Assembly: GCA_965247115.1 (NCBI GenBank)
Contig: CBDFGR010000003.1
Location: forward strand, 2,112,001-2,176,000
Source of the DNA: Myxococcota bacterium
Lineage (GTDB): Bacteria > Myxococcota_A > UBA9160 > SZUA-336
Direction: 5' to 3'
DNA length: 64,000 nucleotides
Each line of letters begins with the position of its first letter. The stretch's first letter is position 1. Under the pieces are notes generated by a model. The model was given only the letters and a program-made list of their open reading frames with translations. It had not been told where the DNA came from and made no database searches. Made by a program: the position numbers and the translations under genes. Shown here piece by piece: positions 27,691 to 61,742 of the stretch.

Positions 27691-27767
27691 CCGGCGCGGG
27701 CGGCCGCGCCGGCGCGCACTTCGCTCGGCTGCGCCTCGCTGCGCGCCCTGCTTACAGCAGGGCTTGC
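27691..27767 (-). repeat. Three-hairpin REP-like element, copy E
   Basis: Minus strand: CAAG-CCCTGCT(GTA)AGCAGGG-CGCGCAGCGA-GGC(GCA)GCC-GAGCGAAG-...GC hairpin; starts 1 nt after the stop at 27689. Confidence 0.8.
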
Positions 27768-27887
27768 GGCGGGGATGTCTCGAAGACCGGGCCATAACGT
27801 AGGGACGGTCCTTCGTCATAACTTGTTGCGAGCGACGCGACCTCCGACGGTGTGTCAGAGCTGGTAGTCTTCGGTGAGGAGGAAATC

Positions 27888-29531
27888 ATGCCGGTACATG
27901 GAGGGAGGCTCGCTGCGCGGGCGCTGAAGCAGGCGGGAGTCGACTGCATCTTCACGCTGAGTGGTGGGCACGTGATGCCCATCTACGACGGTGCGCTGGA
28001 CGAGGACATCCGGATCATCGACGTGCGGCACGAACAGGCGGCGGTCCACGCAGCCGACGCTTGGAGCAGGCTCAACCCCGGCAGGATCGGTTGCGCCGTC
28101 CTCACCGCGGGTCCCGGCGTCACGGATGGCGTGACGGGTGTTGCGAACGCGTGGCGCGCGAACAGCCCCATCATCGTGATCGGTGGACAGGGACCGTTCA
28201 GCGCGCTGCGCCGCGGCTCGCTGCAGGAGATGGATCACGTCGCAGTCATGCGTCCGATCACCAAGTGGGCGGATGCGTGCTACGAGACGCACCGGATCCC
28301 CGAGTACATCGAGCTCGCGCTGCGCAATGCCGTGTCCGGCGTACCCGGCCCGAGCTTCCTCGAGATCCCGATGGACGTGCTGATGGGTGAGGCGGAGCTC
28401 GATCGGGTGCGCTTCCCGACCTTCCGCACGGTGCCGGCGCCAATGACCCCATCGCGTACCGACCTCGTCGCCGCCCTCGAGCTGCTTGCCCGGGCCAAGC
28501 GACCCGTCGTGATGGCCGGTACGGCCATCAAGTGGTCGAACGGCAGTGCGGCCCTGCGCCGCTTCATTGAAGAGACCGGCCTGCCCACCTTCTGCAACGG
28601 CATGGGCCGGGGGCAGGTCCGCTCCGACGACCCGCAGTTCTTCAACCGCGTGCGCAAGGAAGCGATGGGGAAGTGCGATGTCTTCGTGCTGGCGGGCTCA
28701 CCACTCGACTTCCGGCTGGGCTTTGGCCGCTCCATCCCTGCGGACGCAGAGATCATCCAGCTCGACATGGAGAACTCGTTAATTGGCCAGAACCGCTCGC
28801 CCGACGTGGCCATCGTCGGCAATCTCGGCCTCGCCTTCGAGCGGCTCCTCGAGGTCATGAAGGAGGAGTCGATCCAGCTCGACTTCACCACCTGGCGCGA
28901 CGAGCTGCGCGGCCGCGAGGCGGAGATCGGGGAAGGTTTCGAGGCCCAGCTCAATTCCGACGAATCGCCCGTGGACCCATTGCGCATGGCGCGCGAGATC
29001 CGTGAGTTCATCGACGAGAACACCATCCTGATCGGAGACGGTGGCGACATCGTGGCCCAGTCCTCCAAGGTCATCCCGGTGTACAGGGAGAACTGCTGGA
29101 TGGATCCGGGGCCGTTGGGAACACTGGGCGTGGGCATGCCCTTTGCGCTGGCTGCGAAGGCCTCCTTCCCGGACAGGAAGGTCCTGATCATCTACGGAGA
29201 TGGATCCTTCGGGCTGAACGGCTTCGAGTACGACACGGCGATCCGCCACGACCTGCCCATCGTTGGCATCGTCGGGAACGACGCCGCCTGGGGTCAGATG
29301 CTGCGCCCGCAGGTGGGCCTGTACGGCGCGGAGCGGGTCGTGGCCACGCGCCTGAACTACACGCGGTACGACAAAATCGTCGAGGCGATGGGAGGACACG
29401 GCGAGTACTGCGAGCGGCCGGAAGAGATCCGACCCGCGCTCGAACGCTCCTTTGCTTCGGGCAAGCCGGCACTCATCAATGTGAAGATCCGCCGCGACGA
29501 GGGCGCCATGAAGGGCAGCACCTACGTCTGA
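27888..29531 (+). CDS. ThDP-dependent enzyme, acetolactate synthase-like / 2-hydroxyacyl-CoA lyase clade
   Basis: FTLSGGH, VRHEQAA, TAGPG, SLQEMDH, DPGPLGTLGVG, GDGSFG...VGND; GAGGAGG RBS. Confidence 0.88.
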   Translation: MPVHGGRLAARALKQAGVDCIFTLSGGHVMPIYDGALDEDIRIIDVRHEQAAVHAADAWSRLNPGRIGCAVLTAGPGVTDGVTGVANAWRANSPIIVIGGQGPFSALRRGSLQEMDHVAVMRPITKWADACYETHRIPEYIELALRNAVSGVPGPSFLEIPMDVLMGEAELDRVRFPTFRTVPAPMTPSRTDLVAALELLARAKRPVVMAGTAIKWSNGSAALRRFIEETGLPTFCNGMGRGQVRSDDPQFFNRVRKEAMGKCDVFVLAGSPLDFRLGFGRSIPADAEIIQLDMENSLIGQNRSPDVAIVGNLGLAFERLLEVMKEESIQLDFTTWRDELRGREAEIGEGFEAQLNSDESPVDPLRMAREIREFIDENTILIGDGGDIVAQSSKVIPVYRENCWMDPGPLGTLGVGMPFALAAKASFPDRKVLIIYGDGSFGLNGFEYDTAIRHDLPIVGIVGNDAAWGQMLRPQVGLYGAERVVATRLNYTRYDKIVEAMGGHGEYCERPEEIRPALERSFASGKPALINVKIRRDEGAMKGSTYV

Positions 29532-29631
29532 CGAAGACGGCCTGGCCGCGGACTCGACCGGCGTCCACTTCGGCGGCGCACGGATCGACACGCTCCTCCT
29601 GTGTCAGGGGGAGGTTGCGAGACTCGGACCC

Positions 29632-30087
29632 GTGACAATGGCCGTCGGGCAGGCGCGGCGCTCGCTTCGCACCCGGGACGTGCGCGCGACGCACGTAGTC
29701 TTTGCGCCGCGAATACCACGCCCGCTACTGCTCGGGCTGGCACGGCTCGAGAATTCGAGCGAAGAGCTGATCTGGGTCGAGTACACCGAGACGTGGGACG
29801 TTCCGGCCGGAACCTACCGACGAGCGCCTGGCGCCTGTGAGCGGCGCACGCCAGAAACGATCTGGGCACTGGCCGATGCCTCTGCGGCCCTGCGAGCGCA
29901 CCCTCCGGACCCCCCTCCGCGGGTCGGCCTGGCACTCGACATGCACCTCGCCCTCCCGGCCGGTTCGCGCCGCGAGTTCAGCTTCGCCTACGTCAGGTGC
30001 ACCCCACCCGAGGAGCCCTCTGACCTGGTCCGCGCCTGGCGGGGCGACGTCGCAAGAGAGTTGGTGCGGATTTCAGGGAACGAATAG
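29632..30087 (+). CDS. Hypothetical protein (start uncertain)
   Basis: Fills the gap between convergent genes; frame stays open upstream to the preceding gene's end; no clear RBS. Confidence 0.4.
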   Translation: MTMAVGQARRSLRTRDVRATHVVFAPRIPRPLLLGLARLENSSEELIWVEYTETWDVPAGTYRRAPGACERRTPETIWALADASAALRAHPPDPPPRVGLALDMHLALPAGSRREFSFAYVRCTPPEEPSDLVRAWRGDVARELVRISGNE

Positions 30088-30666
30088 AAGGTCGACTTGA
30101 GTGGGGACGGTGGCCGAGAGCGTCTCGTGGCCGCAGACCGCCTTCAGGACCTGGACCTGGCGCTCCATTCCGAAGTCCGCCGCGTTGAGTAGCAGCGGAC
30201 CCGCGCTCTGCACGCGGAATCCCCCGGACTCGCGCGAGACGCGGATCGGAACCGCCAGCATGAACCGGCTGCCGTGCAGCACCAGGCTTCCCTTCACGGT
30301 CAAACTGAGACTGCCGCCCGCCGGAGGCACCTGGGTGGGGTCGACGTTCTCGAGCTCGAAGCGCGCCAGGGGGAACTTCGTTGCCTCGAAGAAGTGGGTG
30401 AGGATATTCGCGTCGCGCGCTCTATCGCCGGTGGCAAGCGTGGAGACCGCGACCTCCACCCACCCCGTCCCCGTCTCGGGATCAAGCGCGCCGGAGAGCC
30501 CCGTGAACGAGCCGGGTACGGCAACCAGGTCGTTCTTGATGCCGACGAAGTAGATCGAGGACTCGGCGGGGACGAGTCCCAGCTCCACCGCCGGACCGTT
30601 GCTCGCGTAACAGGCGAACACGAGCCAGGTCACAAAGACACCGCTGATTGCGAGGACACGGGCCAT
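30073..30666 (-). CDS. YceI family lipid/polyisoprenoid-binding protein
   Basis: Signal peptide, SSIYF, VPGSF, LATGDRARDANI, FFEATKFPLARF, GSLVLHG, DFGM; coupled to argD (TGATG). Confidence 0.85.
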   Translation of the reverse strand: MARVLAISGVFVTWLVFACYASNGPAVELGLVPAESSIYFVGIKNDLVAVPGSFTGLSGALDPETGTGWVEVAVSTLATGDRARDANILTHFFEATKFPLARFELENVDPTQVPPAGGSLSLTVKGSLVLHGSRFMLAVPIRVSRESGGFRVQSAGPLLLNAADFGMERQVQVLKAVCGHETLSATVPTQVDLLFVP

Positions 30667-31859
30667 CAGCTGCTCCCCACGACGTCTTCGACGATGTCCA
30701 GGGCCGCGTCGAGCTCTGCCTCGGGGATGTTCAACGCAGGGAAGATCCGGATCACGCGGTCCGCTGTCAGGTTGACGAGAACACCGCGTTCGCGGGCGGC
30801 CTGGTGGACGGCCGCTGCGCGCTCGGCGTCGCGCAGGACCAGCCCGATCAACAGCCCGAGTCCCCGTGCCTCTTCGACCTTGTCGCCGTTCCGCTTCGCG
30901 AACTCGGCAAGGCGCGAGAGTGTGCTCTCTCCGAGTCGTGCGGCGCGGTCGACGAGACCTTCCTCCTCGATCACGCGCAGCACCGTCGCGGCGCCACGCG
31001 CGCACAGTGGATTGCCCGCGTAGGTTCCGCCGTGGTCTCCGGGGACGATCGAGCTCATGACCTCCTCCGTTGCCATGAAGACTGCGATCGGCAGCCCGCC
31101 CCCCACACCCTTTCCCATGGTGAGGATGTCCGGCACGACCCCGCTGTGCTCGAGCGCGAGCCAGCGGCCCGTGCGCCCGGCACAGGTCTGGACCTCGTCC
31201 AGGATCAAGAGCACACCTGCCGCGCGGCACGCTCTGGCGAGGCCTTGGATGTAACCCTCCGGCGGGACCACCACGCCGCCCTCACCCTGTATGGGCTCGA
31301 CGATCATCGCGGCCACGTCGTCCCCGATCGCCTGCTCGGCCGCGGCGAGATCTCCGTAGGGAACGAAGCTCGCCTCGTGGATGATGTCGCTCCACGGCTC
31401 GCGGTACTTCGTCTGGCCAAGGCAGCCGAGGACCCCGAGCGTTCTGCCGTGGAAGCTGTTCAACGTCGCGACGAAGCGACTGCGCCCCGTCTTGCGGTGC
31501 GCGAGCTTCAGCGCGCCCTCATTCGCCTCGGCTCCGCTGGAGACGAAGAACGAGCGGTGGATGGGGTCAGGGGTGACGGCGTCGAGCCGCTCGGCGAGCT
31601 CGAGCTGGGGGGAGGTGAACACGATGTTTGTCGTCTGCATCAACGTGCCTGCCTGGTCCGAGATCGCTTCGACCAGCGCTGGATGACAGTGCCCGATCGA
31701 GGTGACGCCCCAGCCCGAGGTGAGATCGGTGAACTCATCGCCCGATACGTCCCACACCTTGGAGCCCTGTCCCCTGACCAGGGCCAGCGGCCAGCGCCGC
31801 ACACCCGGGGCGAAGACCTTGCCCTCCCGTTGAACCAGCGTTTCGTAGTTCTGGGTCAT
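30666..31859 (-). CDS. argD: Class III aminotransferase, acetylornithine aminotransferase-like
   Basis: GHCHP, SGAEANE, SFHGRT, EPIQGEGG, DEVQT, MGKGVGGG, HGGTYAGNP; GGAGG RBS. Confidence 0.85.
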   Translation of the reverse strand: MTQNYETLVQREGKVFAPGVRRWPLALVRGQGSKVWDVSGDEFTDLTSGWGVTSIGHCHPALVEAISDQAGTLMQTTNIVFTSPQLELAERLDAVTPDPIHRSFFVSSGAEANEGALKLAHRKTGRSRFVATLNSFHGRTLGVLGCLGQTKYREPWSDIIHEASFVPYGDLAAAEQAIGDDVAAMIVEPIQGEGGVVVPPEGYIQGLARACRAAGVLLILDEVQTCAGRTGRWLALEHSGVVPDILTMGKGVGGGLPIAVFMATEEVMSSIVPGDHGGTYAGNPLCARGAATVLRVIEEEGLVDRAARLGESTLSRLAEFAKRNGDKVEEARGLGLLIGLVLRDAERAAAVHQAARERGVLVNLTADRVIRIFPALNIPEAELDAALDIVEDVVGSS

Positions 31860-31944
31860 CGTTTCCTCCAAGAAAGTCGAGCACGAGGCTCGCGAAGCAA
31901 GCCGGCGTTTCAAGATACGCGAGATGCCCGGCCCGGGGTAATCG

Positions 31945-32688
31945 CTACGCGATCAGGTCGGACAGCTCGGCGAGGTCCTCGATGATCCAGGTGGGCGCCT
32001 CGCCCTCGTGGGCCTCCAGTCTGCGCTCCGGGTCCTTGACGCGGCGACGGATCCAGGCCGTGCGCATGCCTAGCTTGCTCGCGCCGTTGACGTCGCTCTC
32101 GAGATCGTCGCCCACGTGGACGACCTCTTCGGGAGGGACGTCGAGCTCTGCCAGCAGGGCCTGGAAGATCTCGGGTCGCGGTTTGCGGATGCCGACGGTC
32201 TCCGAGATCGTCACCGCATCGAAGTGGGGGCGCAAGCCGGAGTCCGCGAGCACGCGTTCTGCCGTCGGCGTGTGGCTGAAGTTCGAGCAGACCCCGAGCT
32301 TGAGCTCGCTCCCGAGCTCGGCCAGGACCCGCTCGTGATGCGAGAGGAAGCGCGTCTGCTCGTAGATGCCCCGCATGTGTGTCTCCGTGAGCTCCTCTGC
32401 CAACGCGGAGTCGTCGACGCCGAGCCGTCTGGCAAGCTCCGCGAAGCGGCGGATCGTCGGCAGCTCCAGTCCGCGCGAATACGTGGAGGTTCGCAGCTCG
32501 GAGTCGACGGCGAACAACATCTGGCCGAAGCTCTCGAAGTCGATCGGATGCCTCTGCGCGGTCACCGCGTGCAGCGCCTGGAGGGTGGAGTGGAACTTGC
32601 GACCGCCCACCTCGACCAGGGGCAGGTTGTTCATCGAGAGATCGACGAGGGTGTCGAAGAGGTCGAAGGAGATCGCACGGGTGGGCAC
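31945..32688 (-). CDS. HAD-family hydrolase
   Basis: FDLFDTLVD, CSN, KPRPEIF, HVGDDLESDVNGA; TATGAT lies 7 nt before the GTG at 32688. Confidence 0.85.
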   Translation of the reverse strand: MPTRAISFDLFDTLVDLSMNNLPLVEVGGRKFHSTLQALHAVTAQRHPIDFESFGQMLFAVDSELRTSTYSRGLELPTIRRFAELARRLGVDDSALAEELTETHMRGIYEQTRFLSHHERVLAELGSELKLGVCSNFSHTPTAERVLADSGLRPHFDAVTISETVGIRKPRPEIFQALLAELDVPPEEVVHVGDDLESDVNGASKLGMRTAWIRRRVKDPERRLEAHEGEAPTWIIEDLAELSDLIA

Positions 32689-33520
32689 GCGTCGCATCAT
32701 ACTCGGTGACAACCTGGTGGTCCTGCCGCGCCTGCCCGACGCATCCGTCGACCTGATCTACATCGATCCGCCCTTCAATACTGGCAAGCAGCAGCGTCGT
32801 GCTCGCATTCGCGTCACGCGCGACCCAGCCGGAGAGCGCGGCGGCTTCGGAGCTCGTCGCTACCGCAGCCGTGCGGTCGCGTCCGCCGGATTCGACGACA
32901 GCTTCGATGACTTCTCGCTGTTCCTGGCGCCCCGCCTCGCGGAAGCGTGGCGACTCCTGAAGCCGACGGGGTCGTTCTTTCTGCACGTCGACTACCGCGA
33001 GGTCCACTACTGCAAGGTGCTGCTGGATCAGGTCTTCGGCCGCGATTGCTTCCAGAACGAGATCATCTGGGCCTACGATTTCGGCGGCCGCTCGCGCAGG
33101 CGCTGGCCCGCCAAGCACGACAATCTGCTGTGGTATACGCGCCACCCGAGCGACTACACGTTCAACTACGAGGCGATCGACCGCATCCCGTACATGGCCC
33201 CCGGACTCGTCGGCGCGGAGAAGGCCGCGCGCGGCAAGACCCCCACCGACGTGTGGTGGAACACGATCGTACCGACCAGCGGCCGCGAGAAGACCCGCTA
33301 CACCACGCAGAAGCCACTCGCGATCCTGAACCGGATCGTGAACGTGCACTCGAATCCCGGTGACCTGCTGCTCGACTTCTTTGCTGGCAGCGGAACCCTC
33401 GGCGAGAGCGCCGCCCGCAATGGCCGTGACTTCGTCCTGATCGACTCGAACCCCGAGGCGGTCGAGGTCATGCGGGAGCGGCTGGCCTTCGCGGATCCCG
33501 ATTTCAGCTGCTCGGGGTAA
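32681..33520 (+). CDS. Site-specific DNA methyltransferase (N6-A/N4-C, beta class), no cognate endonuclease adjacent
   Basis: DLIYIDPPF precedes DFFAGSGT; TQKP motif; GTG start after AAGGAG. Confidence 0.9.
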   Translation: MGTRRIILGDNLVVLPRLPDASVDLIYIDPPFNTGKQQRRARIRVTRDPAGERGGFGARRYRSRAVASAGFDDSFDDFSLFLAPRLAEAWRLLKPTGSFFLHVDYREVHYCKVLLDQVFGRDCFQNEIIWAYDFGGRSRRRWPAKHDNLLWYTRHPSDYTFNYEAIDRIPYMAPGLVGAEKAARGKTPTDVWWNTIVPTSGREKTRYTTQKPLAILNRIVNVHSNPGDLLLDFFAGSGTLGESAARNGRDFVLIDSNPEAVEVMRERLAFADPDFSCSG

Positions 33521-36012: not shown

Positions 36013-37038
36013 ATGACTCGAGTGCTCGTGACAGGCGGCTGTGGCTTCATCGGCTCGAACTTCATCAGACACCTGATCGACGAGGATCCCGGGGTCCTCG
36101 TGACCAACCTTGACCTGCTGACCTACGCAGGCAACCCGCGGAACCTGGAAGGGCTGGACGTTCCCGGCTACCGCTTCGTGCGCGGTGACGTCCGTGATCC
36201 GAAGCTCGTGGACGAGCTCGTCCCGGACGCAGACTGGATCGTCCACTTCGCGGCCGAGACGCACGTCGACCGCTCCACCTCCGAGCTGGCCGGCGACTTC
36301 GTGCGCACAAACGTCTACGGCACGTACACACTGCTGGACTCCGCGCGCCGCCTCGCCCCGCGGGCCCGCTTTCTCCAGGTTGGAACCGACGAGGTCTACG
36401 GCGACCGACCCGCGCCGGAGTACCCCTCGGAAGACGCGCCGCTCGCGCCGTCGAGCCCCTACTCGGCGTCGAAGGCCGCGGGCGATCACATGGCGCTCGC
36501 CTTCGAGCGCACTCACGGGCTCGACGTCCTGGTCTCTCGCTGCACCAACAACTACGGCCCCTTCCAATATCCGGAGAAGGTGATCCCGCTCTTCATCACG
36601 AACGCGCTCGAGGACGAGCCGATTCCGCTGTACGACGGCGGCACCCAGGTTCGAGACTGGCTGCGCGTCGAGGATCACTGCCGCGCCCTCCTGCTGCTCT
36701 TGCGGGAGGGGAGGTCGGGCGAGATCTACAACGTGGGCGCGAATCAGACTCCCGAGATCTCGAACCGCGAGCTCACCGACCTGATCCTGCGCTGTCTGGA
36801 CAAGCCGGCATCACTGATCAAGCCGGTTTCCGGAATCCGACCCGGTCACGACCAGCGGTATGCCGCCGACACGACGAAGATCCGTACACTCGGCTGGGAG
36901 CCAACGGCAGACTTGGAGGCTGGCCTCGCTGCGACCGTGCGCTGGTACGAGCAGCGGCGCGACTGGTGGCAGCCGATCAAGTCGGGCGCGTACCGCGAGT
37001 ACTACGAGAAGATGTACGCCACACAGATCGGGAGCTAA
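36013..37038 (+). CDS. rfbB: dTDP-glucose 4,6-dehydratase
   Basis: TGGCGFIGSNF, LTYAGN, FAAETHVDRS, TDEVYG, YSASK, NNYGP, RPGHD. Confidence 0.95.
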   Translation: MTRVLVTGGCGFIGSNFIRHLIDEDPGVLVTNLDLLTYAGNPRNLEGLDVPGYRFVRGDVRDPKLVDELVPDADWIVHFAAETHVDRSTSELAGDFVRTNVYGTYTLLDSARRLAPRARFLQVGTDEVYGDRPAPEYPSEDAPLAPSSPYSASKAAGDHMALAFERTHGLDVLVSRCTNNYGPFQYPEKVIPLFITNALEDEPIPLYDGGTQVRDWLRVEDHCRALLLLLREGRSGEIYNVGANQTPEISNRELTDLILRCLDKPASLIKPVSGIRPGHDQRYAADTTKIRTLGWEPTADLEAGLAATVRWYEQRRDWWQPIKSGAYREYYEKMYATQIGS

Positions 37039-38338
37039 AGCGCGCTGCCAGGGCCTCCAGCTCGTAGCGCAGCTGTGGCCGTTCGACAATCCGGCGCTCC
37101 ACCACCTCCACCGCGTAGATGACGCTCGAGTGATCGCGATCGAAGGCGCGGCCGATGTCCTTGAGCGACAGGTTCGTGTACCTGCGGCACAGGTACATCG
37201 CGAACTGGCGCGGCTGCACGACGCGCCGTCGCCGCGAGCGACCGCTGAGCTCCCCGCGTGTTAGCGAATACGTCTTGGCCACCAGCTCCGTGATCTGCTC
37301 GAGCGTGTGGGGTCGTCCCGGCACCTCCACGGCGGTCAACGCCTCGGCTACCAGCTCGGGTGTGATCCGCGTACGGAGCAGTGACGCGCGTGCGACGACC
37401 TGGTTCAGGCCGGAGAGCAGATCGCGGACGCTATCGACGGGGCGCTCGGCCAGCTGCCGGAGGCACTCCTCGGGCAGGCCGATGCCGCCTCCCGCTGCCT
37501 TCTCGCGCAGGATCTCGGTTCGAGTCAGCAGCTCGGGTGGAGCAATCCGGGCCACGAGCCCCGAGGCCATCCGCGAGGCGAGCTTGTCATCGAGATCCTC
37601 GATCTCCACGGGAAGACGGTCGCCGGACAGGACGACCGTCTTCCCGTGTGAGATCAAGTGGTCGATCGTGTGAAACAGCTCGATCTGCGTCGCCCGTTTT
37701 CCTGAGAGGAACTGGACGTCCTCCAGGATCAAGACGTTCAGCGAGCGTCTGTAACGCTGGCGGATATCCTGCATCCGGCCGCCGCGGATCGCGGAGGTCA
37801 CCTCCGTGGTAAACTCCTCGCTCGAACGATAGATCGCGTGTGATGACAGCTCACGCTGAATCGCCCGGCACAGGTGGGTCTTGCCGACGCCACTCACCCC
37901 ACTCAAGAAGAGGGGACTGCAGCGTCCTGACTGCTGACGTGCGACTGCACGCGCCGCCTCGACGGCGAGCGCGTTGCCCGAGTCGACGACGAAGCTGTTG
38001 AAGCCGGAAGTGGAAGCGCCGACAGCTTGGGCCGGCGAGAGCGGCGAGCCGACGGTGTCGGGGACGTCCCCACTCACGCCCCGTTCCGTCGGCTCGCCTC
38101 CACGCTGGGGTCGATCGGGCTGGACGCGGTAGTCGACGCAGCGAATGTCTGCGGATGCCTCGATCACCGAGCCGTACCTGGATCGAATCCAGTCGCGGGT
38201 AAAACGATCCGGGCAGTGGATCACCAGACAATCGTTCTCGACGACTCCATCGAGCCTACGGAACCATGCGCCGAATGCTGACGCACCTACAGCCTGACGG
38301 ATCGTCTCGCGGACGACCTCCCACCCCCCACCTGGCAT
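36977..38338 (-). CDS. dnaA: Second, full-length DnaA paralogue
   Basis: Domain I (AWF...PDRFTRDWIRSRY), Walker A GVSGVGKTHL, LILEDVQFLSGK, TQIELFH, SRMASGL, PPELLTR, domain IV PRQFAMYL...IGRAFDRDHSSV. The 3' end overlaps the rfbB end by 62 nt. Confidence 0.9.
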   Translation of the reverse strand: MPGGGWEVVRETIRQAVGASAFGAWFRRLDGVVENDCLVIHCPDRFTRDWIRSRYGSVIEASADIRCVDYRVQPDRPQRGGEPTERGVSGDVPDTVGSPLSPAQAVGASTSGFNSFVVDSGNALAVEAARAVARQQSGRCSPLFLSGVSGVGKTHLCRAIQRELSSHAIYRSSEEFTTEVTSAIRGGRMQDIRQRYRRSLNVLILEDVQFLSGKRATQIELFHTIDHLISHGKTVVLSGDRLPVEIEDLDDKLASRMASGLVARIAPPELLTRTEILREKAAGGGIGLPEECLRQLAERPVDSVRDLLSGLNQVVARASLLRTRITPELVAEALTAVEVPGRPHTLEQITELVAKTYSLTRGELSGRSRRRRVVQPRQFAMYLCRRYTNLSLKDIGRAFDRDHSSVIYAVEVVERRIVERPQLRYELEALAARFSSRSVWRTSSRSTRGTRPT

Positions 38339-39387: not shown

Positions 39388-39846
39388 GTGACCAAGACAG
39401 AGCGCGAGGAGCAACGGGTCGTGCTGGAGAGGTTGCGCGCAGATGCGCTCAGCCTGGCGACCGCGTATCGTCTGCCTCTGCGCTCCCTCGATGCCGAGCG
39501 ACCGCAGGTCAAGCGCCGCTACGGCATCTGCTACGACGATGGCAGCATCCGCATTCGGCTGCGCCACGTGCGCACCGGTCAGCTGCTCAAGTACTCGGCG
39601 CTTGTCGACACGCTATGCCACGAGCTGGCACACCTCAGGCACTTCGACCACGGTCGCCGCTTCAGCGCCTTCTACGAAAAACTCCTCGCCTACGCCCGCC
39701 GCAGGGGAATCTACCAACCAACCCCCCGCCCCCCGCGTCGCCGTCCCCCCCAACGCCCCGGCCTCTTCGAGATCCCCCCTCGCCCTCCGCCACACAAACC
39801 ACCGCAGCAGCTAGACCTCTTCCCCCCTCCACCGGAACACCCGTAA
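39388..39846 (+). CDS. Small zinc metallopeptidase-like protein (YgjP/WLM-type HExxH) with Pro-rich tail
   Basis: YGIC...IRIRLR...DTLCHELAHLRHFDHGRRF. Confidence 0.78.
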   Translation: MTKTEREEQRVVLERLRADALSLATAYRLPLRSLDAERPQVKRRYGICYDDGSIRIRLRHVRTGQLLKYSALVDTLCHELAHLRHFDHGRRFSAFYEKLLAYARRRGIYQPTPRPPRRRPPQRPGLFEIPPRPPPHKPPQQLDLFPPPPEHP

Positions 39847-39854: not shown

Positions 39855-39893
39855 TGCGAATCGCCGCGAAGCGCGGCGCTTGCACGGTTGCCG
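39855..39893 (-). repeat. Partial REP-like element, copy F (first hairpin only)
   Basis: Minus strand GGCAACCGTGCAAG-CGCCGCG(CTT)CGCGGCG; inverted partner of copy C. Confidence 0.7.
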
Positions 39894-39967
39894 ATCCGGC
39901 TAGGTGTCCACTGGCTGCGCGGCCGCAAACCGCGCCAAGAGCGCGCTGCGCAAGAAGCCGGGTCCTT

Positions 39968-40117
39968 AACTTGGGGACGGTTCTTAATCTGAACTCATTC
40001 CGCGTGAGACGACCGCAACGACGGCTAGATGGACGAATGTAGCCAAGAGTCCCGCCAGAGTGACCAGAAGTTCCGATATCGGCCAAACAAGTTCGGATTG
40101 AGGACCGTCCCCAAGTT
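39968..40117. mobile_element. MITE-like unit bounded by 28-bp inverted repeats
   Basis: AACTTGGGGACGGTTCTTAATCTGAACT (39968-39995) vs AGTTCGGATTGAGGACCGTCCCCAAGTT (40090-40117), 25/28 complementary; 94-bp spacer with no convincing gene. Confidence 0.55.
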
Positions 40118-40164
40118 CGGATTCCGTGGAGAACCGGCAACCTCCTACGGGGCTTGGCAACCAT

Positions 40165-40346
40165 GCAAGCGCCGCGGAACGCGGCGCGCGCAGCGAAGGG
40201 CCTGGCCCTGAGCGGAGGTGGGTGGCAGCAAGCCGTGCCGAAGGCGCGGTGCGCAGTGAGGCGATAGCCGAACGAAGAGCGGGTGGCGCGCGACCGCTCG
40301 CGCGCCGGGCCCCGCAAGACGGGCCGCCCGCGGCCGGGTCCCACAG
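40165..40346 (+). repeat. Three-hairpin REP-like element, tandem copies C1 and C2 plus a duplicated 3' end
   Basis: CAAG-CGCCGCG(GAA)CGCGGCG-CGCGCAGCGA-AGGGC(CTG)GCCCT-GAGCGGAGGTGGGTGG, then CAAG-CCGTGCC(GAA)GGCGCGG-TGCGCAGTGA-GGC(GATA)GCC-GAACGAAGAGCGGGTGG-hairpin-CCGGGCCCCGCAAGAC. Confidence 0.85.
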
Positions 40347-40354
40347 GGAGAGAC

Positions 40355-40558
40355 TCAGGCTTCTCGGACCTTGTCGTAGTCCTCGAGGGAGTTCGGCCCC
40401 TCGACTACCTTGACCTCGACGCCCTCGAGCGCGATCTGCTTGTCGAGGATCTGGGAGACGAGCTGGTCGACGGTGAGCTCATCGTACTCGGCCAGGGCGT
40501 CCTCCAGCCCGCTCTCTTCCACAGACATCGCGATCTGTAGCTTGATGGTGATGGGCAT
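40355..40558 (-). CDS. Small acidic hypothetical protein (67 aa)
   Basis: Strong host-like codon usage and GGAG RBS; no family recognised. Confidence 0.75.
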   Translation of the reverse strand: MPITIKLQIAMSVEESGLEDALAEYDELTVDQLVSQILDKQIALEGVEVKVVEGPNSLEDYDKVREA

Positions 40559-46936: not shown

Positions 46937-47695
46937 ATGCGGGATCGGCTGGCGATCGAACGACGTTTCGCGAAGTTCTACTCCACATTTGCTGCGGACT
47001 TCTCTCCGGACCTTCCGGTCTACACCGAGCTCGCCGCGAAGTATCCCGGCCCCGTGCTCGAGGTCGGCTGTCGAACCGGACGCGTCTCCGCACGGCTGGC
47101 CGCGTCTGGTCACGAAGTGTGCGCGGTAGACACGTCCCGACCGATGCTCGAGGTCGCGCGCGACAGGCTGGCGCGCTGGGGCGACCGGGTTCGGCTGGCG
47201 GACTTCGACCTCCGGCAGGGCGCTCTCTTCGACGGCTTCCACGTAGTCCTGGCGACGCTATACACCTTCAACGCCCTGATCGAGATCGAAGAGCAGCGGT
47301 TGTTCCTCCGCCACGTGTCCCGCTCCATGGGCTCCCCCGGGATCCTCGCGATCGACCTGTTCTGTCCGCTCTCGATCGTGCGGCCCGAGTCGGTTGGGCA
47401 GTGGAGCACGATCGAGCGCCGCTGCGGGGAGCTCAACCTCTCCTGCCGGGTCAAGCGCGAGATGCTCACGCCTCTGCTCGAGCGGCGCATTCAGGTATTC
47501 AAGGTGGGTCACGGCCCCGAGAGCGAGCTCGAGACCTACCGGCGCTACGTCCCGCCGCAGCAGGCCGCCTCCTTGCTGCGCGAGTCCGGCTTCGAGAGCG
47601 TCCGCTGGATCCAGGACTACGATCTCTCCTCGGCCCGCCCCGTCGAGCCCGGAGATCGCCCAACCGGCCCCTTCATCATTCTCGGAGAGAGATGA
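46937..47695 (+). CDS. Class I SAM-dependent methyltransferase
   Basis: GPVLEVGCRTGRV, VDTSRPML, PGILAIDLF. Confidence 0.82.
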   Translation: MRDRLAIERRFAKFYSTFAADFSPDLPVYTELAAKYPGPVLEVGCRTGRVSARLAASGHEVCAVDTSRPMLEVARDRLARWGDRVRLADFDLRQGALFDGFHVVLATLYTFNALIEIEEQRLFLRHVSRSMGSPGILAIDLFCPLSIVRPESVGQWSTIERRCGELNLSCRVKREMLTPLLERRIQVFKVGHGPESELETYRRYVPPQQAASLLRESGFESVRWIQDYDLSSARPVEPGDRPTGPFIILGER

Positions 47696-47697
47696 GT

Positions 47698-47790
47698 CAG
47701 GTCTTGTGGGACCCGCCCGCGGGCGTCCGCGGCCACCCACTCTTCGCTCGCCTCCGGCTCGCTGCGCGCGCCGCTCCGCGGCGCTTGCAG
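47698..47790 (-). repeat. Three-hairpin REP-like element, copy D
   Basis: Minus strand CAAG-CGCCGC(GGA)GCGGCG-CGCGCAGCGA-GCC(GGA)GGC-GAGCGAAGAGTGGGTGG-CCGCGGACGCCCGCGG-GCGGGTCCCACAAGACCTG. Confidence 0.88.
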
Positions 47791-47858: not shown

Positions 47859-47951
47859 TGCAAGCGCCGCGAATGCGGCGCGCGCAGCGAAGGCCGTAGG
47901 CCTGAGCGAAGGTGGGTGGCCCGCGGACGCCCGCGGGCCGGGTCCCACAAG
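47859..47951 (+). repeat. Three-hairpin REP-like element, copy A
   Basis: CAAG-CGCCGC(GAAT)GCGGCG-CGCGCAGCGA-AGGCC(GTA)GGCCT-GAGCGAAGGTGGGTGG-CCCGCGGACGCCCGCGGG-CCGGGTCCCACAAG. Confidence 0.88.
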
Positions 47952-47958
47952 GCAAGGA

Positions 47959-48072
47959 GTCGGTGGTCGGGAAACGTCCCCCGGAGGACTGTGGTAGCGG
48001 TATCCGAGGCGAGCAAGTCCTCTGTGCACGCAAGGAGCGGAGTCCGCCGGGGGACGTTTCCCGGCCTCCGAC
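47959..48072. repeat. 26-bp inverted repeat enclosing a 62-bp structured spacer, upstream of leuC
   Basis: GTCGGTGGTCGGGAAACGTCCCCCGG (47959-47984) / CCGGGGGACGTTTCCCGGCCTCCGAC (48047-48072), 24/26. Confidence 0.8.
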
Positions 48073-48160
48073 GGCGCCGGTCGTGTGCTGGCCACTTCGC
48101 AAGGCTCGTCGGATCGGTTAGAACCATGTTGGGGCGGGGGTTGGACCTGTCGAGGATGGT

Positions 48161-56519: not shown

Positions 56520-56529
56520 AATGGGAAGT

Positions 56530-57069
56530 ATGAAGACAGCCAGAACTATCGCACTCGTTGGGTTCTCCTTGCTCATGACCGGTTGGAGCTCTGCCGCGTT
56601 CGGAGACGGCATCGAAGTGGGGGGTCGCGCGCCGGGCTTCAGCCTGGCGGGAACCGATGGGAACACGTACTCACTCTCGCAGTTCGCGGGAAAGCAGGGG
56701 GTGGTCCTGGCCTGGTTCCCGAAGGCCTTTACAGCGGGCTGAAGCCTCGAAGTAGAGTCGCTGCGTGACAGCGCCGCTGCAATCCATCGCTTCGATGTCG
56801 CCTACTTCATGGTGAGCCTGGACCCGCTCGACAAGAACAAGGAGTTCGCGGAGTCGCTGAAAGCGAACTTCCCGATCCTCTCCGATCCGGAGGGGCAGGT
56901 CGCGAAGGCCTACGAGGTCTTGGGTGTGGCGCGCTTCTTCGCCAGTCGGACGACCTTCTACATCGATCCCGACGGCGTCATCCGCCACATCGATAAGGAC
57001 GTCGACGTGCGGACGCACGGAGCCGACGTCGCGCGTAAGCTGGGGGAGCTGGGCTTCCCGGAGCGCTGA
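56530..57069 (+). CDS. Peroxiredoxin (BCP/PrxQ-like) selenoprotein with N-terminal signal peptide; in-frame TGA at 56740-56742
   Basis: APGFSL...VVLAWFPKAFTAG*SLE...VSLD...FPILSDP...SRTTFYIDPDG, all in one frame; TGA sits at the peroxidatic Cys position (PxxxTxxC). Confidence 0.85.
56759..56773 (+). promoter_or_regulatory. Candidate bacterial SECIS hairpin
   Basis: CGCTG-CGTGA-CAGCG stem-loop beginning 16 nt after the UGA, with GU in the apical loop. Confidence 0.6.
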
Positions 57070-57076
57070 CCTCGCG

Positions 57077-57760
57077 CTAGCGAGCGCTCGTGAAGGCCGC
57101 GACGTAGTCCGCAAGCTCACCGAGTACCTCGGGGTCGGTGCGTCCCGAGCGTTTCAGGACATGGAAGGAGTGGTCCGCGCCCTCGATCCGGCGGAGCTCC
57201 GCGCGCGCCCCGAGGCCAGCGCACACGGGCGCGAGCAGCTCCGGCTCCGCCAGCTTGTCGCGTGTGCCTTGCAGGAACAGCATGGGAACCTTGACGCTCG
57301 CCAGGTGCTCGCCTCGTTCGGTTCCCGGCCGCCCAGCTGGGTGGAGCGGGAATCCCACAAAGACGATGCCACGCAATCCAGGCCATGCCTCCTCTGACTC
57401 GGCCAGCGAGGTCATCCGGCCGCCCATGGACTTGCCACCGGCAAAGAGCGGCAGATCCCCAAGGACGCCGCTCGCTTTGGCCAGCGCGGCGCGCACGGTG
57501 GCGAGCAGGATCCGGCGCGGGTTCGGTCCCCTTCGTCGTTCCCCCTCTATGTATGGGAACTGGTAGCGAAGCGTCGCGACGCCGCGCTCGGCGAGTCGCC
57601 CGGTCAGAGCCTCCATGAATGCGTGGCGCATTCCCGCTCCTGCGCCGTGCGCGAGTACGAGAAGGGCGTGCGCGTCGCTCGGCTGCTCCAGCAGAGCCGA
57701 GACGCGGCCGGTCTCTGGCGTGACCTCGAAATCGAGCGCGGTCGGAGCTGGCACGCTCAC
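57077..57760 (-). CDS. Alpha/beta hydrolase (KANSL3/Tex30-like)
   Basis: LAHGAGAGM, GGKSMGGR, GFPLHP, QGTRD, GADHSF. Confidence 0.88.
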   Translation of the reverse strand: MSVPAPTALDFEVTPETGRVSALLEQPSDAHALLVLAHGAGAGMRHAFMEALTGRLAERGVATLRYQFPYIEGERRRGPNPRRILLATVRAALAKASGVLGDLPLFAGGKSMGGRMTSLAESEEAWPGLRGIVFVGFPLHPAGRPGTERGEHLASVKVPMLFLQGTRDKLAEPELLAPVCAGLGARAELRRIEGADHSFHVLKRSGRTDPEVLGELADYVAAFTSAR

Positions 57761-57764
57761 GCCG

Positions 57765-58922
57765 TCAGCTCCTCGGTAGTCCGAGTCCACGCTCCGCGAT
57801 GATGTTGCGCAGGATGTTGTTCGTGCCGCCCTGGATCGTATAGGCCGGCGCGTACAGCAGGCTGCGCGCTCCCCGTCCTTCGAGCGGGGCCCTGTGAGAG
57901 TCGAGCGCCAGCTGGGCGGCCGGGCCGAGCAGCTCGCTCGCGCAGTCAGCGATCCGCTGCTCGAGGGACGTGCAGAAGGTCTTGGCCGCCGCCGCCTCAA
58001 AGTTCGGGCTGCGACCCTGCGACAGGATCTCGGCGACCCGATAGATCATGCCCCGCCCCGCACGCCACGCAATCTCGATCTCGGCCAATCGCTGGCGCAC
58101 GAGCGGGCTCGCGGATAGGCCGCGCTCCTTGGCCAGCCGTTTGATGTCGCGCCAGAGCGGGTAGTTCGAGAGCAGGCGCTCGATGCCGCTGCGCTCGTAG
58201 TCGAGCTGCTCCATGATCTGATAGAAACCCCGGTTCTGCTTGCCGATTAGCGAGGTCTGGGGTACGCGCACGCCGTCGAAAAACAGCTCGCAGAAGTGGG
58301 CCTCGCCCACCATGTCTACGATCGGGCGAATCGTGATCCCGGCCGAGTCCATGGGGATGAGCAGCTCGCTGATGCCCTTGTGCGGCGCGGACTCGCCGTC
58401 GGTGCGGGCGACGAGGTAGCAGTAGTCGGCCTCGGCCGCGAAGCTGGTCCAGATCTTCTGGCCGCGGATGATGAAGTCCTCACCGTCCACCTCCGCCCGG
58501 GTCTCCAGCGACGCCAGGTCGCTGCCCGCGTTGGGCTCGCTCATTCCGATGCAGAAGCTGATGCCCGCGCGCTGGATGCGGGGCAGGAACTCGCGCTTCT
58601 GTTGCTCGCTCCCGTGGGCGAGCAGAGCCGGACCAATCTGGCGATCTCCGAACCAGTGGGCCGCGACGGGCGCCGCTGCGAGCAGGAGCTCCTCCGTCAC
58701 GATCAGGCGATCGAGGTAGCTGCGCTCGGCGCCCCCGTATGCCTTTGGCCAGGTCAGGCCGATCCAGCCCTGCTCTGCGAAGCGCCTGGAGAACGCGGGA
58801 TCGTAGCCGGCGATCCAGCCGTCTTCTGGGATCGCACGTCCGGCGCAGGCGGGGTCGCTCGCGAGGAACGCGCGCACCTCCTCGCGCAACTGCGACTGCT
58901 CTTCACTCGGCCGAAAGTCCAT
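57765..58922 (-). CDS. Acyl-CoA dehydrogenase family protein
   Basis: GMSEPNAGSDLASL, GQKIWTS, LDYERS, TIQGGTNNI. Confidence 0.92.
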   Translation of the reverse strand: MDFRPSEEQSQLREEVRAFLASDPACAGRAIPEDGWIAGYDPAFSRRFAEQGWIGLTWPKAYGGAERSYLDRLIVTEELLLAAAPVAAHWFGDRQIGPALLAHGSEQQKREFLPRIQRAGISFCIGMSEPNAGSDLASLETRAEVDGEDFIIRGQKIWTSFAAEADYCYLVARTDGESAPHKGISELLIPMDSAGITIRPIVDMVGEAHFCELFFDGVRVPQTSLIGKQNRGFYQIMEQLDYERSGIERLLSNYPLWRDIKRLAKERGLSASPLVRQRLAEIEIAWRAGRGMIYRVAEILSQGRSPNFEAAAAKTFCTSLEQRIADCASELLGPAAQLALDSHRAPLEGRGARSLLYAPAYTIQGGTNNILRNIIAERGLGLPRS

Positions 58923-58949
58923 GCCCGATGATATCTCGACCGGGACTGG

Positions 58950-60185
58950 CTAGGGGGCCAGGCTCTTGGTGATGCGCTCCATGGCGTCCGTGACACGTTC
59001 GCGCTTCGCAAAGGCCGACAGGCGAAAGTAGCCCTCTCCGCAGCTGCCGAAGCCCGCGCCGGGGGTTCCGATGACGTGCGCGTGATCGAGCAGCCGGTCG
59101 AAGAGCTCCCACGATCCGATCCCGTCCGGTGTCTTCACCCAGGCGTAGGGCGCGTTCGTCGCGCCGTACACGCGCAGACCGAGCGAGCGCATGGCGTCGC
59201 GAATGATTCGCGCGTTCTCCATGTAGTAGGCGATGTTCGCCTCGATCTCGGCCCGACCTCGTTTGCTGTAGCAGGCGGCAGCGCCGGCCTGGACCGGGTA
59301 CGACGTCCCGTTGAACTTGGTCGTGTGGCGGCGGATCCAGAGGCGCTGGATCGAGACCGGCTCGCCGTTCTCGTCGCGGCCCTCGAGCTCGTTCGGGATG
59401 ACCACGAACCCGCAGCGCACGCCCGTGAAGCCCGCGGTCTTGGAGTAGCTCCGGAACTCGATCGCGCACTCGCGGGCACCAGGAATCTCGAAGATGGAGT
59501 GCGGGATGTCGGGCTCCCCGATGTAGGCCTCGTACGCGGCATCGAAGAGCAGGATCGCACCGCTGTCCCTCGCGTAGGCGACCCAGCGGGCGAGCTCGTC
59601 GCGGCTCGCGACGGCCCCCGTCGGGTTGTTCGGGAAGCAGAGGTACACGAGGTCGACCGCCTCGCTCGGGAGCTCCGGAAGAAAGTCGTTCCCTTCTCTG
59701 CACGGCAGATAGATCAGGCCCTCGTACGCGCCCTGCGCGTCGGCGTTGCCGGTCCTCCCCGCCATCACGTTCGTGTCGACGTAAACCGGGTAGACCGGAT
59801 CCGGGACCGCCACGCGGGCGCTCGTCGAGAAGATCTCCTGGATGTTCCCGCTGTCGCATTTAGAGCCGTCGGAGACGAAGATCTCGTCCGGCGAGATCTC
59901 GACGCCCCGCGCCGCATAGTCGTGCTCCGCGATGGCTTCGCGCAGGAACCCGTAGCCCGGCTCCGGTCCGTAGCCACGGAACCCGTCTTCCGTCCCGAGC
60001 TCGTCGATGGCGCGGTGCATCGCGCTGCGAACACTCTCGGGCAGCGGGAGCACGACGTCGCCAATGCCGAGTCGGATCAGCTGAGCCGCGGGATGACGCT
60101 CGGTGAACGCGGCCACTCGCCGGTCGATCTCCGGAAAGAGGTATCCACTTGCCAGCTTCAAGTAAGAGTCATTGATGCGAGCCAT
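58950..60185 (-). CDS. dapL: LL-diaminopimelate aminotransferase
   Basis: [55 protein letters not shown]. Confidence 0.95.
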
Positions 60186-60216
60186 GCGGAGCTCCTTGCG
60201 CTCGAGAGGCGGCCAG

Positions 60217-60576
60217 CTAGGGGCGGATCGTGGCGAGTACCAGCTCCGCGAGACCCGGCGCGCTCCCGACCGGCGGTGTGATCTCGTAGCTGAGCTGTGG
60301 ATACCGACTGACGGCGCTCTCCACCAGCCGCGGGATCTGCTCGGAGAGGTGCTGTCCGGGTACCAGGAACAGGGGGTGTACGATCAGCTGCGTGGCGCCG
60401 TCCGCAACGCACGAGGCGATCGCCTGCGGGATCGAGGGCTCGGCCAGCTCCATGTGCGCGATGTAGACCGGAAGATCCGCCGCTCGTCCCCGTACCTCTC
60501 GCGCAACCCACTCCAGGTGCGAGTGGGCCTCGGCGCGGCGGCTGCCGTGATCCACGATGAGCAGCGCGCGAGACAT
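60217..60576 (-). CDS. Single-domain CbiX/SirB-type chelatase
   Basis: [25 protein letters not shown]. Confidence 0.88.
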
Positions 60577-60578
60577 GA

Positions 60579-60872
60579 CTACTCGACCGGACCCCAGTAG
60601 TCCGCGGTCAGCACCAGGTCGTCGTAGACGCGGATCGCGCAGGCCAGGCGCAGCCCGGCACGTATTCGGTTGTTCTGTTTGGTCCGAAGCTCTGCCGCGG
60701 ACTCCCGGCTCACGCTGCCCTCGAGTATCTCCACTCCGCAGGCGGCGCAGATCATCTCATCGCCACAGGCCCTGGCGATGGGGAGGCCGACCTGTCGTAT
60801 GGCGTCGACCAGACGGGCCCCCTTCTGGACCTGCAGCTTCGTGTTTTTCGGCATGAAGCGGACGGTCGGCAT
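60579..60872 (-). CDS. 2Fe-2S ferredoxin
   Basis: ACGDEMICAAC...RLAC. Confidence 0.85.
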   Translation of the reverse strand: MPTVRFMPKNTKLQVQKGARLVDAIRQVGLPIARACGDEMICAACGVEILEGSVSRESAAELRTKQNNRIRAGLRLACAIRVYDDLVLTADYWGPVE

Positions 60873-60903
60873 AGCCCCCCAGGGTAGAGTAAGATGACGA
60901 GCG

Positions 60904-61632
60904 ATGTCGACGGCGGGCCTGCTGATCATCGGCAACGAGGTGCTCTCGGGTAAGGTCGCGGACGAGAACACGCCGTACCTTCTGCCCGAGCTGCGCAAAC
61001 AGGGCGTGGACGTGGGCCGCGTTCACGTGATCCCCGATGACGTCGACCTGATTGCTAGCGAGGTGCGTAGCTTCTCGAGCTCGTTCGACTATGTGCTGAC
61101 CACCGGCGGTGTAGGCCCCACTCACGACGACGTGACGATGGAGGGCATCGCGAAGGCGCTCGGCCGGCAGCTCACCACTCATGTCGAGATGAAGAAGCTC
61201 CTGCTCGGGGCCCTGCGAGGGACGGAGGCGAACGCGAGCCAGCTCAAGATGTGCGAGCTCCCCGAGGGTGCGGGGCTCATACAGGGCGGAGATCTCTGGT
61301 TTCCCCTCGTGTTCGTCAAGAATATCTACATCTTTCCTGGCATCCCCCGACTGCTGCAGGCGAAGTTCGACGGAGCGCGTGACCACTTCAAGGGCAGCCC
61401 CTTTTATCTTCGAAAGATCTTCATGAGCTGCATCGAGAGCGATATTGCCCAGGATCTGCACGACCTGCTCGAGGTCTTCCCGGCTCTCGACCTGGGAAGC
61501 TACCCGAGCACCTCGGCTGTCGACTACCGCACGATGCTCACGCTCGAGTCCCGCGACGCAACGTACGTGGAGAAGGCAGTGGAAGCCCTGCTGACCCGCC
61601 TCCCCTCAGCTTCCATACTCCGAGTGGAGTAA
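60904..61632 (+). CDS. CinA N-terminal / molybdopterin-binding domain protein
   Basis: IIGNEVLSGK, DEN, TGGVGPTHDDVT, FPGIP, GSYP. Confidence 0.88.
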   Translation: MSTAGLLIIGNEVLSGKVADENTPYLLPELRKQGVDVGRVHVIPDDVDLIASEVRSFSSSFDYVLTTGGVGPTHDDVTMEGIAKALGRQLTTHVEMKKLLLGALRGTEANASQLKMCELPEGAGLIQGGDLWFPLVFVKNIYIFPGIPRLLQAKFDGARDHFKGSPFYLRKIFMSCIESDIAQDLHDLLEVFPALDLGSYPSTSAVDYRTMLTLESRDATYVEKAVEALLTRLPSASILRVE

Positions 61633-61645
61633 AGTGGACTGCCCA

Positions 61646-61742
61646 GCAAGCGCCGCGTAAGCGGCGCGCGCAGCGAAGGGCGAAGCCCTGAGCGAAGGTG
61701 GGTGGCCCGCGGCCGCCCGTGGGCCGGGTCCTACAAGACCTG
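61646..61742 (+). repeat. Three-hairpin REP-like element, copy B
   Basis: CAAG-CGCCGC(GTAA)GCGGCG-CGCGCAGCGA-AGGGC(GAA)GCCCT-GAGCGAAGGTGGGTGG-CCCGCGGCCGCCCGTGGG-CCGGGTCCTACAAGACCTG, between convergent stops. Confidence 0.88.

Follow-up and report, generated by a model that had tools for sequence, protein, structure and literature searches.

A dispersed, REP-like family of multi-hairpin repeats in a Myxococcota genome and its possible link to a Y1 HUH enzyme

The stretch analysed here (the window) comprises 64,000 nt of contig CBDFGR010000003.1 (positions 2,112,001–2,176,000) of the Myxococcota assembly GCA_965247115.1, a genome labelled G000. Between its genes lie copies of a short repeat, hereafter the element, whose strand starting with CAAG can be folded into two or three successive hairpins. 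The family counts about 200 mostly intergenic copies in which pairing is kept and whose presence varies between relatives, so that they are likely to be very small mobile elements that are processed while folded as single-stranded DNA (ssDNA). The features annotated in the window are given below, including a second family, T, defined by its terminal inverted repeats (TIRs); scores in bits are those of the covariance model.

27691..27767, minus strand: element copy with its core at 27719–27767 and a degenerate hairpin 3; 57.7 bits
27795..27823, plus strand: degenerate T-family TIR half-site, 5' of copy 27691..27767; match with at most 7 edits
39855..39883, minus strand: decayed hairpin-1 remnant near the stop at 39846; 11.2 bits, not significant alone
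39967..40118, no strand assigned: T mini-element with inverted 29-nt TIRs at 39967–39995 and 40090–40118 and a conserved 94-nt spacer between them
40119..40164, plus strand: conserved 46-nt linker that joins the T TIR to the element and recurs at many loci
40165..40226, plus strand: element copy truncated after the core and the start of hairpin 3, in tandem with the next copy; 67.8 bits
40228..40319, plus strand: full copy of a compensated subtype, with T:A beside the tandem GA and outer stem GCGGG/CCCGC; 47 bits
47702..47788, minus strand: full copy whose 3' end lies 6 nt from the stop at 47695; 56.9 bits
47860..47951, plus strand: full copy, back-to-back partner of 47702..47788; 79.8 bits, z −4.8 when folded as DNA
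47952..48078, plus strand: member of a third repeat family, S, fused directly to the 3' end of copy 47860..47951; z −7.0
61646..61738, plus strand: full copy whose 3' end lies 6 nt from the stop at 61745 (minus strand); 79.3 bits

An earlier note on this DNA had claimed seven copies sharing a three-hairpin grammar. All seven stretches lie where it placed them and six are clear members (47–80 bits), but the one at 39855–39893 (E 1.6; missed by the hidden Markov model) is a mere decayed remnant of hairpin 1, which probably formed the left arm in a composite with outward-facing ends. The grammar is likewise incomplete in copy 40165–40226, which lacks hairpin 3, and in copy 27691–27767, where that hairpin is degenerate. 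The gap between 39893 and 40165 contains the separate T mini-element. Family S, with 27 copies in G000, has a long covarying stem and starts with GCAAG like the element; its copies stand back-to-back with the element or beside TIRs. The loop tally reported for hairpins 1 and 2 of the six fuller copies was reproduced on recounting (8 GNA, 2 GNNA and 2 other loops), and the short distances from 3' ends to stop codons hold at the five sites named, including the 2 nt that separate copy 27691–27767 from the stop of a methyltransferase gene (27033–27689, plus strand). At 40355 this is so only if the reiterated 3' terminus of copy 40228–40319, which continues to 40347 (40321–40347), is counted.

A hidden Markov model trained on the window copies and refined once was run with nhmmer on the 5.17-Mb G000 genome. 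At a cut-off of E<0.01, it detected 197 copies, compared with none in the reversed genome, which bears out the expectation of further copies genome-wide. These fall into 149 loci dispersed over all three contigs, and a pattern restricted to the linkers yielded 168 matches versus 1 in the control. That the repeats constitute a real structured family is thus virtually certain. BLAST found the element in 26 of 41 relatives, and a model scan found it in 16 of 121 genomes of the phylum; of these, 12 belong to the class, and one outside the class has many copies. Titles of the related records mainly carry Myxococcota, Deltaproteobacteria or 'Spirochaetales' labels of metagenome-assembled genomes. 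No Rfam family accounts for the element: no match was obtained in the window at gathering thresholds, and seven loci returned just two sub-threshold miRNA matches. No description of the family turned up in the literature searched, in which few subscription papers were covered. Matches in Pantoea and Gemmatirosa were rejected as devoid of the structure. Two long regions of G000 (C2:1.8–2.2 Mb and C3:2.4–2.64 Mb) are element-free, as are 17 of its 51 100-kb bins, where GC content is about 1% lower and there is no excess of a multi-copy insertion sequence (IS) ending at CTAG. This young IS, identical at 27 G000 sites, is presumably IS5-like. A record labelled Halobacteriales contains a partly matching GA-flanked hairpin repeat (L309:1501–1553, 25 bits).

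The unit kept across the class is a two-hairpin core of 45–52 nt, extended to about 92 nt by hairpin 3, which is lineage-specific and elsewhere variable or missing; the three hairpins proposed in the note therefore do not define the family. A strict grammar parsed 116 of the 197 copies. Hairpin 1 reads GC-AA-G[stem]C-GC-GC and contains a 2×2 internal loop in which invariant AA and GC stand opposite each other, a register predicted from the sequence, as the lower stem has 2–3 bp and never varies. It is followed by GCA, then by hairpin 2, preceded by one unpaired A and closed by G-Y-GA...GA-R-C, and finally by a GNAG tail. The Y:R pair is C:G in 105 and T:A in 10 of the 116 parsed copies. When the positions across the tandem GA were left free in G000 and its relatives, GC:GC was found 277 times, GT:AC 35 times and non-Watson–Crick combinations twice (312/314 Watson–Crick). 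It follows from this covarying pair that the linkers flanking hairpin 2 pair across a tandem G·A mismatch in a pyrimidine-GA-purine context, which favours sheared G·A pairs in DNA. Of the linkers described in the note as near-invariant, those around hairpin 2 are thus themselves paired across GA/GA, and GTGGG pairs with CCCAC. The latter is the outer stem of hairpin 3 in 94 copies, replaced by GCGGG/CCCGC in 19, with an MCGC loop. Alternative linker mini-hairpins (GC-GCA-GC plus GC-GAA-GC) were ruled out because the first GC is unchanged in 33 of 35 T:A variants. Two further readings were rejected upon inspection: RNA loops of the UNCG type on the opposite strand do not coincide in register with the stems, and small peptides read through the core have no common frame.

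Covariation was assessed on an independent set of copies from other genomes, retrieved at no fewer than 128 loci with the linker-only pattern. Among the matches listed, the outer three base pairs of hairpin 2 are formed in 126 of 149 distinct copies (shuffles: mean 50, maximum 67) and those of hairpin 1 in 113 of 134 testable arms (shuffles: mean 38, maximum 53), so the stems do change letters while keeping their pairing, as originally suggested. When 87 matches, drawn from 65 of the listed loci, were aligned by fitting to the model, 98% of the cells were paired, which none of 500 shuffles equalled, and two-sided changes were seen at 9 of 16 pairs, 91 such changes in all; fitting to the model and the kinship of the copies mean that these are not counts of independent events.

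The fold is strand-specific. Hairpin-2 loops in G000 are GNA in 102 cases, every one closed by C:G, versus the complement TNC in 4, which upholds the loop bias read from the window. Internal mismatches in the copies of this genome are G·T in 19 cases versus A·C in 2, and in all four window copies tested the predicted fold of the CAAG strand is better than that of the complementary strand. According to excerpts of PMC13037366, mini-hairpins of this type are much more stable when made of DNA than when made of RNA. Taken together, the loop bias, the mismatch bias, the folding of the CAAG strand and this stability make a DNA fold of the CAAG strand the best reading, and the structure is probably one of DNA rather than RNA.

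Placement was analysed with approximate gene calls made for G000, considering intergenic regions over 90 nt. Of the 197 copies, 180 overlap no called gene, and the element is present in 54 of the 259 convergent regions, in 57 of the 963 co-directional ones and in 26 of the 626 divergent ones. Among full copies facing a convergent gene, 55 of 94 end within 10 nt of its stop, and the proximity to stops noticed in the window is therefore a genome-wide property. Pairs of copies within 600 nt are divergent, that is, back-to-back, in 22 cases, tandem in 26 and convergent (face-to-face) in none, and reiterated termini occur at 27 of 128 3' ends. Cores in relatives are often located between a co-oriented stop and a start that comes 7–25 nt later. 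Three in-frame 90-nt copies reside inside a purD-like gene with a 539-aa open frame (G000:C2:1554040–1554307). By eye, copies were also noticed in an apparent rRNA operon spacer, before a tRNA-Ala-like sequence and a 23S-like start (L216:1117–1600, G030), and tandem cores directly upstream of type IV pilin-like N-termini (L229:1363–2334, G010).

Turnover was examined against the congener G002 (5.8 Mb, 88% identity), with which 800 kb were compared, 400 kb contiguous and the rest around known matches. Of 48 G000 loci with an ortholog in G002, 23 are without a match there, and in the reverse comparison this holds for 14 of 39 G002 loci. Within the window, the ortholog of copy 27691–27767 has no match to the hidden Markov model, copy 47702–47788 also occupies its site in G002, its partner 47860–47951 is missing there, and at the site of 61646–61738 the G002 copy is inverted and adjoins the stop of the other gene; orientation is flipped at some further orthologous sites. 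The orthologous alignments listed show ragged junctions and no target duplication, and in them the three repeat families replace each other at hot-spot sites. The empty-site comparison thus confirmed that presence differs, but produced no clean empty-site junction among these alignments. We consider it very probable that the element is mobile. Conspecific strains with 98–99% identity exist, and no RNA run was listed among the sequencing runs containing this DNA. Contigs of four runs covering a copy-rich 20-kb stretch break at copies and include no joint removing one, so that this comparison is uninformative. Mobilisation of genes between copies as cassettes was rejected, as such cargo is not repeated and the neighbours are housekeeping genes.

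A candidate enzyme lies 1.1 kb to the right of the window. G000 has 17 Y1 genes, one of which, a TIRYT gene (G000:C3:2177114–2177944), is placed between 29-nt T TIRs; gene and TIRs span L001:1023–1977 (equivalent to G000:C3:2177078–2178047), between mutY-like and chorismate synthase-like genes. Its product matches NF047646 (76.2 bits, cut-off 80) and PF01797, with weak HTH_23 and Bac_DnaA_C matches in a second frame, and the T TIR agrees with seven of the eight letters of the TIRtron consensus GGGGWSAS. The T element therefore fits a TIRtron, namely a Y1 gene with a C-terminal helix-turn-helix (HTH) flanked by TIRs. There are 80 T half-sites at 57 loci in G000, against 0 in the control; many of them form mini-elements in which the spacer measures 94 nt, and those at 39967–40118 in the window are the same as those flanking the TIRYT gene. 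The element is also present at 36 of these 57 loci, pointing away from the TIR 52:1 in G000 and 6:1 in G002. It occurs in 34 of 46 TIR-bearing intergenic regions (odds ratio 39) and, considering convergent regions alone, in 20 of 22. Several loci hold a composite of about 410 nt with element copies as inverted termini, whose left linker has 17 nt in common with a TIRYT upstream region. Moreover, RGTCCY is found 17–24 nt before the start codon of 11/11 TIRYT genes (L194–L204; background 4%) and within the 3' arm of the element; before TIRYT genes it is a candidate operator or nick site. At L201, flanking sequence of about 50 nt is duplicated around the element.

The connection to a HUH enzyme postulated in the note thus holds in G000 as a RAYT-class link through the TIRs of the TIRYT gene, but not through copies flanking an enzyme gene: none of the 17 Y1 genes of G000 and 0/29 Y1/Y2 loci have flanking copies, two single copies lying 1–1.2 kb away. 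The other 16 Y1 genes (L002–L015 and two further sites) are paralogs encoding RAYT-like proteins of about 235 aa, with similar non-coding remnants upstream of several of them; they were rejected as partners as they are not near the element. CAAG/CTTG is a target of IS91-type elements, and Y2 genes are present in 5/5 repeat-rich genomes tested, a set that included no genomes lacking the element. IS91 Y2 transposases were rejected as movers, given that the flanks of Y2 genes are unlike the element.

The best explanation, to which we give about even odds, is that these short intergenic repeats are non-autonomous mobile elements moved in trans by a HUH enzyme (Y1, RAYT-class), which in this genus would probably be TIRYT. 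In such a mechanism, the CAAG strand would fold while the DNA is transiently single-stranded, and c(GNA)g loops and tandem G·A pairs would stabilise it. The enzyme would bind the AA/GC loop and the GGTCCC motif, introduce a nick adjacent to the 3' end, in many cases just before CT or CA, and transfer the strand without target duplication. Lone copies would be one-ended products or decay remnants, and lineages without the enzyme would keep the family as a relic, as is thought for CGTC REPs (repetitive extragenic palindromes). The element is also a well-delimited candidate substrate with which to study TIRYT enzymes; the papers, in the portions available, report no biochemistry on them. The family further provides an unusually clean natural covariation set, class-wide, for a non-canonical DNA structure with tandem G·A pairs, c(GNA)g loops and an AA/GC loop.

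Several observations weigh against movement by such an enzyme, besides the kinship of the copies and the lack of a clean empty site mentioned above. The G000 TIRYT gene appears frameshifted, with the Y1 domain and HTH in different frames; intact homologues include L195 and L201. The copy nearest to each of the 17 Y1 genes is at least 2.8 kb away, and at 10 TIRYT loci of relatives no copy lies within 1 kb of the Y1 domain, their own TIRs flanking it instead. RAYT-like genes occur in 15 of the 41 relatives, among which they were not found in the repeat-rich G010 (100% complete), G011, G019, G023 and G004, nor in the repeat-rich genera g3, g9, g10 and g13, so no dedicated RAYT was found in several near-complete relatives rich in the repeat. 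Conversely, G040 has 13 RAYT-like genes without an element match, and G002 has T TIRs without a TIRYT match. No mobile-element enzyme was detected at E<1e-15 among 111 proteins neighbouring copies. As to the ends, GGTCCC is not conserved outside the family, and A-CT or A-CA follows just 46 of 128 3' ends, a count confounded by stop codons, which read CTA in reverse. The 5' ends lack a sharp boundary (50/166 at CT). A GTAG tag is found in just 1/166 5' and 7/168 3' flanks in G000 and in 3/149 5' flanks in relatives, and a CGTC tag in 6/166 and 6/149 5' flanks, respectively, the figures for relatives being from the matches listed. The mobile, ssDNA-folding, REP-like system envisaged in the note is therefore backed as to structural selection, strand specificity, mobility and REP-like placement, with the REP tags absent.

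Two explanations dispense with a dedicated enzyme acting on DNA. The element might act mainly as RNA, as a 3'-untranslated or inter-cistronic mRNA stabiliser, a terminator or a GGAG ribosome-binding site, and spread by recombination or gene conversion. The enrichment downstream of genes and the position between co-oriented stops and starts in relatives would suit this, G·T wobbles fit RNA too, and REPs are thought to act as RNA in the accessible part of PMC3733652. However, C:G-closed triloops outnumber GNRA tetraloops, at convergent stops the mRNA of the gene carries the weaker-folding complement, copies at one and the same site can be inverted in a relative and no Rfam family matches, all of which renders this explanation improbable. 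We regard as equally improbable that hairpins are simply copied by template switching or gene conversion after stops, with the TIR mini-element inserting beside them. Tandem arrays, reiterated termini, the three purD copies, the ragged junctions among the alignments listed and the lack of a linked enzyme speak for it, as does the finding that mobile elements target the palindromes of others in haloarchaeal SMR-A/PATEs (excerpts of PMC3119063). Yet it leaves unexplained the loop letters that are invariant class-wide, the sharp 3' end at unrelated genes, the fixed 46-nt linker at many loci and the 52:1 polarity.

A further alternative, which is compatible with HUH-mediated movement and to which we grant only a small chance, is that the host recognises the core as a fold for priming or for loading the replisome, i.e. 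a PriA-type primosome assembly site (PAS) or single-strand initiation site (ssi). It would allow an excised single-stranded copy to be made double-stranded, or copies would have been retained as restart sites scattered over the genome. Loops whose letters never change on stems that are free to vary are what recognition by a protein would suit, and mini-hairpins at phage and plasmid priming sites bind SSB poorly, as stated in excerpts of PMC13037366. The gene priA is present in 5/5 genomes tested, but also in the element-negative G025. When the core model was run on ColE1 and phiX174, 12 kb together, its best match was ColE1 1318–1356 (plus strand; 14.2 bits, E 0.075), just downstream of the origin, near which we take ssiA to lie. 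This comparison was not blind, and scores of 14–15 bits occur by chance in the window. ssiA of ColE1 is described, without coordinates, in the accessible text of PMC3167613. The longest exact match of the core to phiX174 is 13 nt, in the F–G intergenic region, where a long hairpin also has a tandem GA; however, of 200 simulated phiX genomes, 38 contained a match of at least 13 nt at some position, and the core model does not match the phiX174 site. The literature searched, with the coverage given above, yielded no tested PAS sequences.

A closer likeness is provided by a conserved, unannotated non-coding element of about 90 nt with multiple stems in 88 mostly rhizobial plasmids (1–3 copies). 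It carries the tandem-GA module of hairpin 2 (GNA-GYGA-stem-GARC-GNAG), with a covarying stem and the T:A variant, and topped the core model's list in five further loci searched. Of the seven loci viewed (L376, L377, L381–L385), three lie within 6 kb of repC and two others among ssb/DUF736/ParB backbone genes. It is a candidate ssi, likened to the element by sequence and structure. On the other side, copies are dispersed rather than placed near an origin on a displaced or lagging-strand template, and show no strand bias relative to GC skew (75 vs 64, p 0.40; genes 1935 vs 1322), a test limited by the weak skew. Viral contigs gave a single full-core-pattern match, mispaired. The absence of both replichore bias and viral copies argues against a simple lagging-strand role. 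Matches of a looser module pattern in viral contigs were mostly unpaired and due to chance, BLAST in phages gave weak coding matches alone, and plasmid matches were mostly coding and at chance level. In the window, dnaN-gyrB-gyrA (748–7034) and dnaA (36977–38338) are about 30 kb apart rather than adjacent, and GC skew is weak. A more far-reaching and rather unlikely proposal is that the AA/GC hairpin and the tandem-G·A hairpin of the core form an ssDNA fold of ancient, cross-phylum origin, homologous to plasmid and phage PriA-type priming sites, which in one class of Myxococcota has turned into a self-priming mini mobile element, amplified to hundreds of chromosomal copies and moved by whichever HUH enzyme is available. 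If this were true, REP-like repeats and primosome assembly sites would be connected, and hundreds of natural variants would serve to define the fold that PriA reads. In any case, it can be tested directly whether plasmid priming signals have the same fold as REP-like repeats that possess neither a tag nor a transposase.

Among known systems, the element does not qualify as a classical miniature inverted-repeat transposable element, since single copies have no TIRs and no target duplication was seen among the alignments listed, nor as an IS91-type rolling-circle element, as the ends of resident Y2 transposases are unlike it. PATEs/SMR-A of Haloquadratum are likewise transposase-free, palindromic, without target duplication, present in short terminal-only forms and nested with small elements (excerpts of PMC3119063). 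PATEs derive from IS605 ends, whereas no such parent was found here, where tnpB-bearing IS605 elements were not searched for. Rickettsia RPEs share in-frame residence in a housekeeping gene, as in purD, but the element is nearly always intergenic. Mycobacterial MIRUs are alike in their placement at stop/start junctions. The ColE1 ssiA (n'-pas) and phiX174 primosome sites are small strand-specific ssDNA folds too (excerpts of PMC3167613 and PMC5778457). ColE1 has a GNA-GCGA...GAGC-GAG string like the element, and phiX174 an AA/GC mini-hairpin plus tandem GA; the similarity is weak in score, and those sites are single-copy beside origins, in contrast to some 200 chromosomal copies on both strands.

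The T element, with its GGGGAC TIRs and Y1 plus C-terminal HTH, fits TIRtrons/TIRYT of TnpA-Y1 subclass 2.1, including a dispersed TIR family and dimers, in the parts of PMC3733652 and bioRxiv 10.1101/279083 available. The element itself is not a TIR, and those parts do not describe a repeat coupled to TIR mini-elements with fixed polarity and spacing. CGTC REPs are reported without a dedicated transposase and mostly as head–head dimers, like the element (same part of PMC3733652). They carry a CGTC/TGTC tag and a CCA tail around a stem of 8–9 bp; the element has no CGTC tag, is multi-hairpin and comes from a different phylum. A GA-flanked mini-hairpin may also be present in some CGTC REPs. The closest resemblance in habit is to GTAG REPs/BIMEs/REPINs, especially enterobacterial GTAG-3, which are likewise intergenic, downstream of genes, in hundreds of copies with dimers and clusters, and strain-variable, and which share the AA/GC internal loop and strand-specific ssDNA hairpin (excerpts of PMC3733652 and PMC8266576). 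In the E. coli REP, this bulge (A12A13–G26C27) is required for TnpA-REP activity, with cleavage at CT or CA (accessible text of PMC8266576). Hairpin 1 of the element has the AA/GC bulge of group 2 REPs, and its extragenic, mostly gene-downstream location in dimers and clusters is that of REPs. As far as these excerpts go, GTAG REPs consist of one 20–40-nt palindrome and their systems have a RAYT gene flanked by the repeat, whereas the element has two or three hairpins (45–95 nt), a tandem-GA module and no such gene. The family is thus a REP-like variant, tag-less, multi-hairpin and without a cognate RAYT.

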